Below are positions 5,935-16,746 of a stretch of 16,746 bases of DNA, piece after piece. This stretch comes from a virus (Duplodnaviria > Heunggongvirae > Uroviricota > Caudoviricetes). Within the stretch, counting starts at the first letter, position 1. Each line of letters opens with the position of its first letter. The notes under the pieces were generated by a model, which was not told where the DNA came from, ran no database searches, and worked only from the letters and a program-made list of their open reading frames with translations. The position numbers and the translations under genes were made by a program. The stretch is from IMG/VR virus record IMGVR_UViG_2740892439_000018; one strand, 5' to 3'.

Positions 5935-6495
5935 TCACAACCCCGCCAGCTCAGACCAGCGATGACGATTATTTCCTGTCGGGCATAATTCAGGGTGCTG
6001 TGCAAACAACGAACGGTGGGCAATCTCCACGCCAGATTCTGGATAAGCAGGCATCGACGTTATTGTGATTTCACGGAGTTCAGCGGCGGTTACGGTACGC
6101 AAATACGGTTTTTGCGCGATACTCCACTCCTCGCATAATGCGCGAAAACCAAAGCTCATTCCTGTAATGTCGCCACGCTCCACCAGCGTAAGCACATCTT
6201 TTCCAAGCTGGGTATCCGGCGGTGTCAGTTCAAAACGTAACCCGGTGTTATCCTCAGTCAGTACCAGAGTGCCGGATTTGGTGCGCCCCAGCAGTTGGGT
6301 ATAGTCATGCTCATACAGGCAGCGCACATCATTACCCGCCGCCAGATAGTCAGCAAAAGCCCCCGGCGTGAACTGTTCGCGGAATTCGTCCCAGATAATT
6401 TCTGAAAGGCTGTTCCAGCGAACGGCATACCCCACCAGCTTTTTATTGCTGGCGGTCAGTTCAGATGTGCGGATTTCAAAATCGGTGTTTTTCAT
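5935..6495 (-). CDS. Prohead maturation protease (HK97 family, S78/U35)
   Basis: 186-aa product with GYAVRWN...FTPGAF...EHD...LGRT...EDNTGLRFE...GMSFGF pattern typical of HK97 prohead proteases; GGAG Shine-Dalgarno 7 nt before ATG 6495. Confidence 0.9.
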   Translation of the reverse strand: MKNTDFEIRTSELTASNKKLVGYAVRWNSLSEIIWDEFREQFTPGAFADYLAAGNDVRCLYEHDYTQLLGRTKSGTLVLTEDNTGLRFELTPPDTQLGKDVLTLVERGDITGMSFGFRALCEEWSIAQKPYLRTVTAAELREITITSMPAYPESGVEIAHRSLFAQHPELCPTGNNRHRWSELAGL

Positions 6496-12079: not shown

Positions 12080-12400
12080 TTATCCCCGATTTGAATCAGT
12101 ATTCGCTTTCTTTATGGCATTTAATGCATCTGTGGCATTTTCAATGGTGCACCGTAACGAAATATCAAAATGTCCAAGCATTGCCAGTAACAAACCGATA
12201 TTACCCATATCAATGCGCATGGCCTTTGCGTCATATTCCTCATTTTCTGACGCATGCCACATCAGGCTACCAATTGACGCAACAGCCATTGATATATTGT
12301 CAGTAGCCCCATCCGCAGCGGAATAAACCTTTTTAGCAATATCATGCTCACAGTTAAAATGCGGATTAATCAGGTACTGGTAATTTGACATATCAGGCAT
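12080..12400 (-). CDS. Hypothetical protein (106 aa)
   Basis: Strong AGGAGGTG Shine-Dalgarno 5 nt before ATG 12400; stop 6 nt before the next gene start; unrecognised family. Confidence 0.65.
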   Translation of the reverse strand: MPDMSNYQYLINPHFNCEHDIAKKVYSAADGATDNISMAVASIGSLMWHASENEEYDAKAMRIDMGNIGLLLAMLGHFDISLRCTIENATDALNAIKKANTDSNRG

Positions 12401-12596
12401 GGCGCACCTCCTTGCGGATACGGGCGGTGAACACCATCACGCAGCCAGCCGGGGATTGCTGGCGGGCTTCCTGTTCACTGGTGGCCACGATGGTAATCAC
12501 ACGCGGTTTTGCGGCGCTCAGGGCGATAAAACGCCAGGTGAATTTATTCAGGTTGTGCGAATCCCGCCCTCGCGGGTGTGTGGTATGATTTAACAT
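12393..12596 (-). CDS. Hypothetical small protein (67 aa), first gene of the minus-strand early operon
   Basis: C-terminal portion of a longer, mostly non-protein-like ORF-track frame; own GAGG Shine-Dalgarno before ATG 12596; stop overlaps the next gene start by 8 nt. Competing plus-strand ORFs make this uncertain. Confidence 0.4.
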   Translation of the reverse strand: MLNHTTHPRGRDSHNLNKFTWRFIALSAAKPRVITIVATSEQEARQQSPAGCVMVFTARIRKEVRHA

Positions 12597-12677
12597 AGCT
12601 ACCTCGATAATCTTGCTATCGTTGGTGGTTAGACGCCCTGCATGTGTTGCGAGCACTGCGGGGCGTTGCTCTTTTAG

Positions 12678-12723
12678 GTGTATTTCACCTTTGCTTTTTA
12701 ATTTACTCACTGGTGAAATACAC
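12678..12723. promoter_or_regulatory. Perfect 12-bp inverted repeat GTGTATTTCACC ... GGTGAAATACAC with 22-bp spacer; candidate operator in divergent control region
   Basis: Verified by reverse complement; located between the divergent starts at 12596 (-) and 12790 (+); a TATACT -10-like hexamer lies at 12754-12759. Confidence 0.45.
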
Positions 12724-12789
12724 TTCAAGCCTTTTTTTATCATTTTTTTTGCGTATACTGACATACACCAATTTTTAGGAGATCCAGAA

Positions 12790-12969
12790 ATGGCAACTGG
12801 TGCAAAGAACGCAAAATCACAAATGACAACTGTCAGAATCCCACATGAAGTAATGGATGATATTGAGCAACTTAAAGAACCTGGCGAAAGTACCGCTGGT
12901 TTTTTAGTTACTGCCGCAAAAGGCGAGATCAAACGCCGCCAGCGGCGCAAGGCCAAAGAGCAGGAGTAA
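12790..12969 (+). CDS. Putative ribbon-helix-helix (CopG/Arc-like) DNA-binding protein (59 aa)
   Basis: AGGAG Shine-Dalgarno 8 nt before ATG 12790; TTVRIPHEVMDDIEQL... fits the RHH beta-strand plus helix pattern; basic C-terminus. Confidence 0.5.
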   Translation: MATGAKNAKSQMTTVRIPHEVMDDIEQLKEPGESTAGFLVTAAKGEIKRRQRRKAKEQE

Positions 12970-13026
12970 CCATCACCAGCGCCGTGATGCGGTGAACTGT
13001 GGCGCACAGGGTTACAGGTATCTACG

Positions 13027-13206
13027 ATGACTGACAAATTATTAAAGAAATTATCCTCATCTAGGAAAAAACAACGCAAAAATGCGGTAAACGAACATGA
13101 ACCGGAGAGATTCGCACCATGTGCGTTTGTCCTTGAGAAGTACCTTAAAGAGTATTCCAGGAAAATATGCTTATTGCAGGCATGGCAACAAATCGATCCA
13201 GACTGA
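13027..13206 (+). CDS. Possible small protein (59 aa) downstream of the RHH gene
   Basis: ORF not in the supplied track (below its size cut-off), translated by hand as MTDKLLKKLSSSRKKQRKNAVNEHEPERF...QQIDPD; followed by a plus-strand terminator; weak Shine-Dalgarno. Confidence 0.3.
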   Translation: MTDKLLKKLSSSRKKQRKNAVNEHEPERFAPCAFVLEKYLKEYSRKICLLQAWQQIDPD

Positions 13207-13270
13207 TAGCATTGCCCACCAGCCGACAACCTGGTATTCTGGATATGCTCAAGTTTAGTGTTATGCCACT

Positions 13271-13298
13271 GGCGACCGCCCCCGGTCGCCTTTGTTTT
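13271..13298 (+). terminator. Rho-independent terminator (plus strand)
   Basis: Stem GGCGACCG (13271-13278) / CGGTCGCC (13283-13290), loop CCCC, followed by TTTGTTTT. Confidence 0.65.
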
Positions 13299-13315
13299 AT
13301 ATACCATAACTCACC

Positions 13316-13537
13316 TTACGCCGATTTCAGTTGTGCTTTGGGTTGACGATCAAGCCAATCATTAACCTCAGACAGCAACCAACCGACAGAACGAGCCCCC
13401 AACTGACGACGGGCTGGAAACACCCCTTTCCTTTCCATCATATAACGCGTCGTTCGGCAAATACCGGTAAGGCGTCGGCATTCCTCCTCACGAATGATGC
13501 GATCAAATTGGTCTTGCGATGATTTAACTTTGCTCAT
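13316..13537 (-). CDS. alpA: AlpA-family transcriptional regulator / excisionase-like HTH protein
   Basis: 73-aa product from ATG 13537: ...QFDRIIREEECRRLTGICRTTRYMMERKGVFPARRQLGARSVGWLLSEVNDWL matches the AlpA/prophage CP4-57 regulator pattern. ORF-track upstream extension not supported. Confidence 0.85.
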   Translation of the reverse strand: MSKVKSSQDQFDRIIREEECRRLTGICRTTRYMMERKGVFPARRQLGARSVGWLLSEVNDWLDRQPKAQLKSA

Positions 13538-13599
13538 ATGGATATGCCCTCGTTTATTATCGTTCGAGAGCATATTGATAATATGCTTAGAATATTTAG

Positions 13600-13630
13600 G
13601 TGATATCACATATTTTATATGTGATATCAC
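13600..13630. promoter_or_regulatory. Two copies of the 10-bp palindrome GTGATATCAC spaced 21 bp centre to centre, upstream of alpA; candidate operator
   Basis: Palindromes at 13600-13609 and 13621-13630 with AT-rich spacer ATATTTTATAT; the second overlaps the stop codon of the upstream 245-aa gene. Confidence 0.5.
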
Positions 13631-14364
13631 GTTCGCCCTAAGTATTTAGCCCACGTATTCTTATCTGTTGCGGGAAGAAACACCCCTTTCATCGCTGCCG
13701 CAGCCTCTAAAACAGCGATCACTTTAGCAACTGGAGCAGTTCCAATATCTATATCATCCATTTCTGGAATTAGTTTGATTAATGCAGGGATCAACTCAGC
13801 TTTCTTCGCAAGAGTTTTTGGCGATTCTCCCATTTTTCTTCCAGGCATGGTTCCAACATCTTTGATATGCTCCAAATCCTTAGCCATTACACATAAAAAC
13901 CTTCTGTCGATCTCAATAGCCCCATCACTCATAATTTGACATTCCCAGTTTTCTGATTCAGGACGAGTTGAAAAAAAAGATGATACTATCCTTGCATCAT
14001 TGCCAATAAATTCAAGTTCAGAAAAACTTTCCCGATTTAGATAGAAGAAACCGCAAAAATTCTTTGCAAGATAAGAAGCCACACCAAAATAATTTACCCA
14101 TTCAAAATCGCTACCAACAGGCTTCATCCCTGTAATTACCCAGCGATCCCCTTGCAACATCCCTCCAGAATCAACATCAATATTTTCAACTAATGATTTT
14201 GGTATAACTAGCGATTTACATGGATGACAGTTTGGAAAATAAACAGAAATATTCAAAGCACCTATAGCAGCAAAATGATATATATCATTAAGCGTACATC
14301 CCAGCTTCTTTGCTGCTTCAGGCAATGGATAATATATACGCTCAGGGATGCTTATCTTTTTCAT
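13627..14364 (-). CDS. Hypothetical protein (245 aa), AT-rich, translationally coupled to int; possible N-terminal HTH
   Basis: ATG (14364-14362) overlaps the int stop TGA (14363-14361); visibly lower GC than int; N-terminal LPEAAKKLGCTLNDIYHFAAIGAL resembles an excisionase/AlpA-type HTH; remainder unrecognised. Confidence 0.78.
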   Translation of the reverse strand: MKKISIPERIYYPLPEAAKKLGCTLNDIYHFAAIGALNISVYFPNCHPCKSLVIPKSLVENIDVDSGGMLQGDRWVITGMKPVGSDFEWVNYFGVASYLAKNFCGFFYLNRESFSELEFIGNDARIVSSFFSTRPESENWECQIMSDGAIEIDRRFLCVMAKDLEHIKDVGTMPGRKMGESPKTLAKKAELIPALIKLIPEMDDIDIGTAPVAKVIAVLEAAAAMKGVFLPATDKNTWAKYLGRT

Positions 14365-15584
14365 TTCGCTACCTTCAATATTTTTACATTTGAATACTGA
14401 CCAGAAATAACCTCAAGCCGTTCCATCCATTTATTTAGAGCGTCTAGTTTTTCTGGTAAGTACTGGCTACGATTGTATATGGCCATTACACCACCTAATG
14501 TGTGACCGAGAAGCTGTTCAACAACATGTGGTGCAATCCCCATGTTATTTAGTGTGGTAGCAAACGTCCTGCGCAGGTCGTGAAGTGTCCACGATTCAAT
14601 ATGCCCCAGACGCTTATATATCATCCTCCCCCATTGGCTGACAGCTTCTGGTTTCTTTATTTCACCCAACAAAAGACCTGAGTTTTTGTGTTGCTCTATA
14701 AGCTGTTGGATGAATGGGCGTATTACCACTGGAATAGGGCGCAATATCTTCTCTCCGCCTTTGCTGTGTTCTTTAGGCACTGTCCAGATCCAATCCTTTA
14801 AATCCCACTCTGTAATACGTGACAACCGAAGCTCCTGGGTTCGACATCCAAACACCACCAATAGACGCAACAACGATGAATAGTATGGTTTAAATTTCTT
14901 ACCTGAACATTCCTGCCAAATATCTGCTAACTCTTGACTGCTGTGTTCCCTATCGCGCTTATTCTGTTTTCTACCAACATCATCGATAGTCAGGTCATCC
15001 AGAGCATTGCTAACCGCATAACGATGTACGCGGCAAAACTTCAGAGCCTGCTTACACATCTGCAGCAAATAACCAGCTGCCACTGGAGCGTCATTCCTTA
15101 CTCTAGCGAAACACTCCAGCCAATGCCGGGTTTCGCACATTGATAACGGATAATCACCTATATAGGGGAAAATATGCTTCCTCAGTTGCTCAATGTGTTT
15201 ATCAACATTCGTGCGCTTGTAAACGGCGTATTCTCTGATCCAGTAATCCAGAGCCTCTTTTACCGTCACTGGTTTGAGTGTTTCATGTATTGCCACATTT
15301 AACCGATGCTTTGGATTTTTACCTTCAGCAAGCCATGCTCGACACTGTTCACGTTTCTCGCGCGCAGCTTTCAGAGAAAGATCCGGGTAGTTTCCAAGCT
15401 TAACACGCTGTGAATACGATTCACGCCCACCAATCCGGAAAGAGAAATACCAAGTAAGAACGCCAATTTTTGACACCTTGATACTCAATCCATCACCGTC
15501 AGCATAAAATCTATCTCTATCGATTTCCCTCCCCAGCATCTTACGCAACGATGTATCGCTTAATTTGTTCGTTCCTCCAGCCAT
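14361..15584 (-). CDS. int: Tyrosine site-specific integrase (P4-type)
   Basis: 407-aa product from ATG 15584 (AAGG Shine-Dalgarno); N-terminal MAGGTNKLSD... and C-terminal catalytic region ...WTLHDLRRTFATTL...VEQLLGHTLGGVMAIYNRSQY typical of P4-family integrases. ORF-track start 15665 is TTG. Confidence 0.93.
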   Translation of the reverse strand: MAGGTNKLSDTSLRKMLGREIDRDRFYADGDGLSIKVSKIGVLTWYFSFRIGGRESYSQRVKLGNYPDLSLKAAREKREQCRAWLAEGKNPKHRLNVAIHETLKPVTVKEALDYWIREYAVYKRTNVDKHIEQLRKHIFPYIGDYPLSMCETRHWLECFARVRNDAPVAAGYLLQMCKQALKFCRVHRYAVSNALDDLTIDDVGRKQNKRDREHSSQELADIWQECSGKKFKPYYSSLLRLLVVFGCRTQELRLSRITEWDLKDWIWTVPKEHSKGGEKILRPIPVVIRPFIQQLIEQHKNSGLLLGEIKKPEAVSQWGRMIYKRLGHIESWTLHDLRRTFATTLNNMGIAPHVVEQLLGHTLGGVMAIYNRSQYLPEKLDALNKWMERLEVISGQYSNVKILKVAK

Positions 15585-15861: not shown

Positions 15862-16746
15862 ATGAGAACAGGATGTGAACCGACCCGGTTTGGTAATGAA
15901 GCTAAGACCATTATTCACGGTGATGCCCTTGCCGAACTTAAAAAGCTACCTACTGAAAGCGTCGATCTGATCTTTGCCGACCCACCGTATAACATCGGTA
16001 AAAATTTTGATGGTCTGATCGAAGCCTGGAAAGAAGATCTGTTTATCGACTGGCTGTTTGAAGTGATTGCAGAGTGCCACCGCGTTCTGAAAAAGCAGGG
16101 CAGCATGTACATTATGAACAGTACGGAAAACATGCCCTTTATCGATCTCCAGTGCCGCAAGCTTTTTACCATCAAAAGTCGCATCGTCTGGTCATATGAC
16201 AGTTCTGGAGTACAGGCGAAAAAACACTACGGCTCCATGTACGAACCCATCCTGATGATGGTGAAAGACGCAAAGAACTACACATTCAACGGTGATGCTA
16301 TTCTGGTAGAAGCCAAAACCGGATCGCAGCGCGCGTTGATCGATTATCGCAAAAATCCTCCACAGCCATACAATCATCAAAAAGTACCGGGTAACGTCTG
16401 GGATTTTCCGCGCGTGCGTTATTTAATGGATGAATATGAGAACCACCCGACGCAAAAACCGGAAGCCTTACTGAAACGCATTATTCTCGCCTCTTCCAAC
16501 CCAGGCGATATCGTTCTCGACCCGTTTGCCGGTAGCTTTACTACCGGTGCCGTAGCCATCGCCAGCGGACGAAAATTCATTGGTATTGAGATCAACAGCG
16601 AGTACATCAAAATGGGGCTTCGACGGCTGGATGTCGCGTCGCATTACTCCGCGGAAGAACTGGCGAAAGTGAAAAAAAGAAAGACGGGCAACCGGTCAAA
16701 ACGATGCCGGGTTAGCGAAGTTGACCCCGATCTCATTGCAAAGTAA
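15862..16746 (+). CDS. yhdJ: DNA adenine (N6) methyltransferase YhdJ
   Basis: Product MRTGCEPTRFGNE...FADPPYNIG... (DPPY motif) recognised as E. coli YhdJ; AGGGA Shine-Dalgarno before ATG 15862; the in-frame GTG at 15856 used by the ORF track is less likely. TAA at 16744-16746. Confidence 0.93.
   Translation: MRTGCEPTRFGNEAKTIIHGDALAELKKLPTESVDLIFADPPYNIGKNFDGLIEAWKEDLFIDWLFEVIAECHRVLKKQGSMYIMNSTENMPFIDLQCRKLFTIKSRIVWSYDSSGVQAKKHYGSMYEPILMMVKDAKNYTFNGDAILVEAKTGSQRALIDYRKNPPQPYNHQKVPGNVWDFPRVRYLMDEYENHPTQKPEALLKRIILASSNPGDIVLDPFAGSFTTGAVAIASGRKFIGIEINSEYIKMGLRRLDVASHYSAEELAKVKKRKTGNRSKRCRVSEVDPDLIAK

Follow-up and report, generated by a model that had tools for sequence, protein, structure and literature searches.

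In lambdoid phages, adjacent dyad operators such as OR1-OR2 are bound cooperatively by repressor dimers, and the operator read by lambda cI and Cro is 17 bp long, with outward-facing TATCAC...GTGATA half-sites 11 bp apart. Cox, Apl and Vis, found in P2-, 186- and P4-type elements, bind direct-repeat arrays and not dyads. Allelic variants of Stl have conserved ends and a hypervariable sensor part. Stl is the master repressor of the SaPIs and Gram-positive PICIs and is de-repressed by helper-phage proteins (PMC6092414). In Gram-negative PICIs, the island cycle cannot do without its activator AlpA, which also activates its own promoter (PMC6092414); alpA is silent until a helper phage switches its transcription on, and neither an inducer nor a repressor of alpA has been identified (PMC6092414; PMC11773190).

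The DNA that we analyzed, a stretch of 16,746 nt referred to here as the window, contains an island whose region recurs with 99.7-100% identity in 19 of the 5,426 complete E. coli genomes compared and is partially present in a twentieth. According to its RefSeq annotation, E. coli MS6198 carries the identical island between fis and yhdJ, with genes for an integrase, a protein that we call X, AlpA, an Icd-like protein, primase, capsid, portal, protease, HNH and terminase. This gene set, its unidirectional arrangement, the length of about 15 kb and the PICI attachment site are those by which the capsid-forming PICI family is defined (10.1101/2022.09.08.507074), fis being a described PICI attachment site (PMC10111431). 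Judged by its sequence, the window thus represents a satellite of the capsid-forming PICI type, integrated next to fis in E. coli. The integrase gene, gene X, the twin palindromes and alpA follow one another in this order, and all three genes are co-directional on the minus strand. The features that matter for what follows are these:

13316 to 13537, minus strand: alpA, 73 aa, Pfam Phage_AlpA
13544 to 13573, minus strand: alpA leader stem-loop, formed by ATGCTCTCG, a 12-nt loop and CGAGGGCAT
13574 to 13599, minus strand: block of 26 nt separating S2 from the leader hairpin of alpA, candidate core-promoter or transcription-start region
13600 to 13609, no strand assigned: proximal palindrome S2, GTGATATCAC, whose left half in the minus-strand reading, GTGATA, is a possible -35
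13610 to 13620, no strand assigned: spacer between S1 and S2, 11 bp, ATATTTTATAT on the plus strand, all A/T
13621 to 13630, no strand assigned: distal palindrome S1, GTGATATCAC, which encloses the TGA stop of gene X (13627-13629)
13627 to 14364, minus strand: gene X, 245 aa, candidate operator-binding regulator
14361 to 15584, minus strand: tyrosine integrase, 407 aa as annotated, whose stop overlaps the start of X (ATGA)

Several details of the surroundings can be added. On the far side of alpA, a 304-aa minus-strand open reading frame at 12393-13307 is not a gene, RefSeq having only the 67-aa Icd-like protein there (12393-12596); a gene of the YlcI/YnfO family on the plus strand (12790-12969) is directed towards alpA, and a terminator-like hairpin lies at 13271-13290 on the plus strand. 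The flanking yhdJ adenine methyltransferase gene (15862-16746 of the window; 18563-19447 of L001) is a pseudogene with an internal stop in MS6198. A remnant of the island is present in E. coli MS 69-1 (L002, 4001-4250), where a deletion took int, X and the operator, so that alpA keeps only about 25 bp upstream and adjoins a truncated acrE.

The initial annotation had described two identical 10-bp palindromes 21 bp apart, separated by an AT-rich spacer, the second overlapping the stop of a 245-aa gene coupled to int. All of this is borne out: GTGATATCAC has exactly two copies in the 16,746-nt window, at 13600-13609 and 13621-13630, with a start-to-start distance of 21 bp; ATATTTTATAT consists entirely of A and T; the TGA of gene X falls within the second copy; and the start of X shares 4 nt (ATGA) with the integrase stop. 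Both copies are perfect palindromes (GTGAT/ATCAC) and, being about two helical turns apart, would present themselves on one face of the helix. Allowing up to one mismatch, GTGATATCAC has 3 matches in the window compared to 0.40 expected, a number reached by 0 of 200 dinucleotide-preserving shuffles, and no third copy of the relaxed motif GTGAWWTCAC in the 16.7 kb of the window is convincing. An isolated GTGATTTCAC at 6065-6074 fits the relaxed motif within chance expectation for the window and lies inside the capsid-module genes, in the portal gene by coordinate conversion. S2 is 62 bp from the ATG of alpA (13537).

Searching viral contigs for the exact twin motif gave 11 loci, 8 of which, including the island of the window itself, share one architecture, with the end of an X-like gene followed by the first site, 11 bp of variable spacer, the second site and the alpA leader. 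As such a scan is conditioned on the motif, the conservation search was repeated through the X protein. Seven loci found by protein homology alone (L016, L017, L020, L021, L022, L029 and L030) all carry two sites in the same place; examples of site pairs in relatives are GTGATATCAC with GCGATATCGC, GTGAAATCAC with GTGATTTCAC and GTGAATTCAC with GTGATATCCC. A profile search of 1.84 billion representatives returned 322 relatives of X, and the twin sites are again present at the distant loci L032, L033, L035, L038 and L045, which have the same C-terminus and very different middle domains. Twin GTGAWWTCAC sites stand at the X stop in every examined X relative with the canonical C-terminal domain.

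The pattern of change around the sites is equally regular. S1 is a perfect GTGAWWTCAC in 14 of 14 aligned loci and in 5 more distant ones, and S2 keeps the GTGA..TCAC arms at most positions across the 14 aligned loci; the variation is in the central two bases of the sites, which are A or T. The sites are spaced 20-22 bp start to start in 19 loci, with a spacer of 10-12 bp that is not conserved in sequence. In the 14-locus alignment most site positions hold 1.6-2.0 bits of information, compared to about 0-1 bit per column in the spacer and the 26-nt block. This block travels with the operator module and is poorly conserved in sequence; measured from S2 to the leader hairpin, it has a constant 26 nt in 12 of the 14 aligned loci, and L024 and L025 have about 27. 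The spacer, the flanks and much of the X protein have diverged among site-bearing loci, which come from E. coli, Klebsiella (by protein annotations), Kosakonia and unassigned metagenomic contigs. Conservation in related islands, which the initial annotation had proposed as a test, is therefore what we find: twin dyads at a near-constant distance from the leader, set in diverged surroundings. In the window the symmetry reaches further, to a perfect inverted repeat of 14 bp around a 3-nt loop; this extension is restricted to the lineage of the window, and relatives keep the two 10-bp dyads without it.

The stop of X is the TGA inside site 1 (..AAG TGA TATCAC) in most loci and comes earlier only in L022 and L045. 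With the stop codon within the site, the reading frame of X and the operator are locked together in most loci.

Of the features that characterize a repressor-type operator, dyad symmetry, several helically phased sites and conservation above that of neighbouring non-coding DNA are present here. That the palindromes should be chance occurrences or a functionless remnant is suggested by nothing but the shortness of the motif; its absence from the shuffles at this frequency and its retention by about 19 independent loci, while the neighbouring DNA diverged, leave that explanation a negligible probability. We consider instead that a protein binds the twin palindromes as an operator and thereby controls alpA, and we put the probability of this reading, which the sequence comparisons favour, at roughly three in four. 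The proposal of the initial annotation that the sites form an operator for a dimeric regulator gating alpA is in this sense essentially supported by conservation and geometry; that a protein binds the sites and that its effect is repressive are points which we infer.

Because each site is palindromic, S1 is also complementary to S2, and a 10-bp RNA stem (14 bp in the window) could form. The pair might accordingly act as a structure of the int-X mRNA or of single-stranded DNA, serving as a 3'-end stabilizer, a terminator or an attenuator between X and alpA. The stem is predicted to be very stable in the window, where the computed folding energy of the region is -34.3 kcal/mol (z = -5.8), and one compensatory pair occurs in L030. 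However, it is base identity and not pairing that is conserved across lineages whose spacers are saturated with changes: pairing is broken by 2 mismatches in L020, by 3 in L021 and by 1 each in L022 and L029, all of which keep GTGA..TCAC, and the extension to 14 bp is not conserved. Covariation of the S1:S2 stem over the 14 loci is uninformative, as 213 of 500 shuffles reach the observed score and the sites hardly vary; 5 of 10 pairs are invariant, one cell is compensatory and 8 of 140 cells are unpaired. Covariation within each dyad is likewise not significant, the sites varying too little for it. In the aligned PICI loci S2 is not followed by a U-tract, the terminator scan is empty there, and the near-constant 26 nt to the leader hairpin argue for a DNA geometry. 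Taken together, we regard a role as a nucleic acid structure as very unlikely. An intrinsic terminator at 13600-13630 was rejected in its own right, as the stem is A/T-rich, there is no T-run on either strand and the scan is negative.

A pair of identical sites also occurs outside the islands. At 2165-2195 of L009 (IMGVR_UViG_2588253800_000018), in a P2-like prophage region with a gpD-like tail gene nearby, GTGATATCAC-N11-GTGATATCAC is followed by a T-run, a point in favour of the structural explanation just discussed. This pair lies 33 nt after a 294-aa gene whose N-terminus looks ORF6N/antirepressor-like by eye, and it could be a terminator hairpin or a trans target of the same kind of protein that would bind the island sites.

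As to which protein reads the sites, natural module swaps between islands are informative. AlpA, one of the regulators listed in the initial annotation, is 91% identical between L004 and L026 and 95% identical between L003 and L024, and in these pairs only L026 and L024 have GTGATATCAC; likewise the AlpA of L042 equals that of L026 from the AERVIRE motif to the C-terminus, and only L026 has GTGATATCAC. Conversely, canonical sites also precede very different types of AlpA in L030 and L045. The swaps thus argue against AlpA as the protein that reads the palindromes, and we rejected the idea that these are its auto-activation site, since the sites are present beside some and missing beside others of a set of near-identical AlpA proteins, and are also present beside very different ones. 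The integrase fares no better: in L004 it is 86% identical and the island occupies the same fis/yhdJ chromosomal site, yet the twin sites are absent, and about 2 kb separate the sites of the window from the int-proximal end of the island, for which reasons we also rejected arm-type integrase sites. The presence of the sites is therefore independent of AlpA and of the integrase. Many site-bearing islands lack the RHH/YlcI-type protein, which was on the same earlier list.

The remaining protein of that list, the 245-aa protein X, behaves differently. In L018 and L042 its N-terminal winged helix is close to the canonical one and the C-termini are of other kinds; the middle of the L018 protein is canonical-like as well, and over 191 residues the N-terminus and middle of the L042 protein share 42% identity with a canonical member. 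There is no GTGAWWTCAC in the 8.6 kb of L018, and none was seen in the intergenic region between X and alpA of L042. L038 presents the reverse combination, a divergent N-terminal helix with a canonical C-terminus and perfect sites. Moreover, other C-terminal classes come with repeats of their own. The class ending in ..NTWARWR.KFP (L036, L040 and L041) has two 19-20-bp units, GTGAGTTTTT.AAAAACTCAC, of the form GTGA-N11/12-TCAC; the class ending in ..DWLKNVDIDFFP (L042) has GGAATTTCCA and TGGAAATTAC, 20 bp apart, which we label the GGAATTTCC operator class as the counterpart to the GTGATATCAC class; and the class ..DYVGIPT..VEN.KK (L018 and L043) has GTGGGAATTCCCAC inside the 3' coding end. In these alignments the type of operator follows the C-terminal class of X, and not AlpA, the integrase or the N-terminal winged helix, and the architecture is kept while the sequence of the repeat changes with the C-terminal domain. 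Both the module swaps and this co-variation point to the 245-aa protein, and the most probable reader of the sites is X, acting through its C-terminal domain.

The operator abuts the C-terminal codons of X, and the co-variation could therefore be a matter of simple physical linkage. L042 and L026 become homologous exactly where the leader hairpin has its 5' edge and not before. In such swapped pairs, among which are also L004 with L026 and L003 with L024, the X C-terminus with the operator and the 26 nt on one side, and the hairpin with alpA on the other, behave as separate recombination modules. The C-terminal helix of X is, for its part, kept at the protein level through synonymous changes, which indicates that it is itself under selection.

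If the tracking of the X C-terminus reflected adjacency only, the binder could be a protein other than X, such as a regulator of the helper phage, a host transcription factor or another island protein. In addition to the linkage itself, the occurrence of the identical twin motif in the P2-like prophage of L009 is compatible with this, as is the induction of alpA reporters by helper phage (PMC6092414; PMC11773190). On the other side, the swaps exclude AlpA and the integrase, and the gene content downstream of alpA varies greatly between site-bearing islands; a host-specific factor fits poorly with sites that persist across E. coli, Klebsiella, Kosakonia and metagenomic contigs. The motif is, furthermore, neither a CRP site nor a lambda operator. 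The CRP consensus is TGTGA-N6-TCACA, whereas the arms here are 2 bp apart and not 6; against a lambda-type cI/Cro operator, the half-sites of GTGATATCAC abut in opposite order, and the TATCAC-N11-GTGATA that spans S1 to S2 measures 23 bp. A literature search for the motif string found nothing relevant among the matches listed, which were mostly eukaryotic or molecular-tool studies. We therefore think it quite unlikely that a protein other than X is the reader.

X belongs to a rare family for which there is no model in Pfam, NCBIfam or PADLOC; its match in PHROGs is marginal, to the family phrog_13283 of unknown function (E = 0.0028), and neither a sequence profile search of the PDB (nothing meaningful) nor Foldseek against viral structures (nothing at E <= 0.001) gave a relative. 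AlphaFold2, run on the family alignment, produced a confident model with a mean pLDDT of 83, in which about residues 10-55 form a winged helix of the Xis/AlpA/MerR type. The middle is beta-rich and the least conserved part of the family alignment, and the C-terminus consists of three helices (182-241) with a near-invariant end, TW(A/Q)(K/R)YLGR, which reads ...NTWAKYLGRT in the window; searches by structure and by sequence gave nothing significant for this C-terminal domain. The winged helix is the sole recognizable DNA-binding fold of X, and the fact that the operator does not co-vary with it counts against X as the binder.

Other proteins occupy comparable positions in other islands. DUF6387 proteins fill the same int-coupled slot in sister islands (L003, 4266-5261, E. 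coli VG35A2; L004, 4289-5131, HZ13) and were rejected as relatives of X, as there is no detectable relationship. In L004 a single different palindrome, TCACCGTCGCGGTGA, overlaps a GATAAT hexamer upstream of the same leader hairpin, and the int-overlapping slot may generally hold a regulator. EcCIMP1_002, located between int and alpA of another PICI, was likewise rejected as a counterpart of X, being a small and unrelated protein. In the prototype EcCICFT073, alpA apparently follows int directly, without X, as judged from the name ORF3 of the following gene (PMC6092414). Control by X would for this reason be a feature of a subclass and X no universal PICI regulator.

The leader hairpin shows compensatory changes in 6 of 8 pairs across 14 loci and contains the Shine-Dalgarno sequence GAGGG (13547-13551) within its 3' arm. 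With the ribosome-binding site of alpA inside the hairpin, the transcript must start upstream of the hairpin or at it, which places S2 over the -35/spacer region, or else S1 between -35 and -10 with S2 over the start. A sigma-70 consensus scan of the alpA strand found no confident promoter; candidates with GTGATA as -35 are weak (7-8 of 12), and alternative weak candidates place S1 between -35 and -10. This second geometry presupposes the use of a -10-like hexamer at the 3' end of the spacer, which is present in about half the loci. Either geometry would be typical of repression.

The leader hairpin itself looks like a terminator or attenuator just before the ATG of alpA. It is directly followed by a U-run in many relatives and not in the window, and a CGAAC...GAACG direct repeat is preserved in its loop; AlpA auto-activation or anti-termination could act on this hairpin. 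An N-terminally extended AlpA starting from an ATG in the 5' arm of the hairpin was rejected, as this reading is out of frame or absent in L016, L023, L024 and L014. No Rfam family matches any part of the window, the palindromes and the leader hairpin included.

The position of S1 and S2 would also fit an activator. X could then use the same operator to activate alpA on sensing the phage, by recruiting or remodelling RNA polymerase at a weak promoter of that gene, in a class II or MerR-like manner. The promoter candidates are indeed weak and without a good -35, the N-terminal fold of X is MerR/Xis-like, and the control of alpA has been described as activation by the helper phage (PMC6092414; PMC11773190). 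On the other hand, a start just before the hairpin puts the centre of S2 near -28 to -32 and not at the classical -41.5 or -61.5, the AlphaFold2 model of X is without the coiled-coil dimerization helix of MerR, and a protein made constitutively with int better fits a maintenance repressor. We consider activation by X unlikely.

With X as a repressor, the locus could work as follows. The bipartite operator with the consensus GTGAWWTCAC, at the junction of the int-X operon and the alpA leader, would be occupied by two cooperating X dimers, one on each dyad and both on one face of the DNA, their specificity coming from the C-terminal domain. X would be made in the integrated state, since it is translationally coupled to int, and S2, only 26 nt from the leader hairpin, overlaps any promoter able to start the alpA transcript; bound X would thus keep alpA transcription off in the integrated state, whether it comes from a promoter of its own or from int-X read-through. 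A helper-phage signal, possibly sensed by the hypervariable middle domain of X, would release the protein, after which AlpA would amplify its own expression, lock the induced state and start the island cycle. The binding of X, the location of the promoter, the repression and the phage-sensing step are all steps that we infer, and the full model, in which X binds, represses alpA and is relieved by the phage, stands at little better than even odds at the very most.

Compared with the described systems, the locus resembles lambdoid operators such as OR1-OR2 in having two dyads roughly two helical turns apart beside a master-regulator gene, and lambdoid immunity regions in having a class-specific sequence that changes together with a domain of the adjacent regulator. 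Even the half-site resembles the TATCAC of lambda. However, the island half-sites are in opposite order and abut within 10 bp (GTGAW/WTCAC) rather than forming 17-bp operators, X has no cI/Cro-like helix-turn-helix, its gene is coupled to int and co-directional with the target instead of divergently transcribed, and no third site or switch partner was seen at the island operator. With Stl, X would share the role of an island-encoded silencer that acts until a helper-phage protein arrives, as well as conserved ends and a hypervariable presumed sensor part like those of the Stl allelic variants. Yet there is no sequence or fold relationship between the two, Stl and str/xis are transcribed in divergent directions whereas X belongs to the int operon and precedes alpA, and repression and anti-repression by X are proposed by analogy. 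Cox, Apl, Vis and the AlpA family share with X the Xis/AlpA/MerR-type winged helix, and Cox, Apl and Vis also a gene in the integration module and sites controlling an early regulatory gene; X differs from these three in being three times larger, with two extra domains, and in an operator that tracks the C-terminal domain and not the winged helix. By analogy, then, the element would work like a lambdoid operator pair combined with a Stl switch, and is a member of neither group.

A broader view, which we put forward tentatively and hold to be doubtful, is that a large subclass of Gram-negative PICIs has in X its master regulator and phage sensor. X would be a functional counterpart of Stl with a new three-domain architecture, having a hitherto unrecognized, rapidly diversifying C-terminal DNA-specificity domain, class-specific twin operators and helper-phage release via the middle domain. 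GTGAWWTCAC, GTGA-N11/12-TCAC, GGAAWTTCC and GTGGGAATTCCCAC would then be immunity-like operator classes.

For Gram-negative PICIs, among them the capsid-forming ones that pass from species to species, expression of alpA is the step that commits the island to induction. The PICI papers considered here, from 2018 to 2025, describe that the helper phage turns alpA on, name neither an inducer nor a repressor nor a cis element, and do not mention the twin motif or protein X. A conserved operator 62 bp from the start of alpA, together with a candidate cognate protein, makes the question of PICI induction testable. Class-specific pairs of operator and X C-terminus would explain how related islands in one cell avoid cross-talk, and such pairs may be of use for predicting helper specificity and as orthogonal switches for PICI-based delivery tools.
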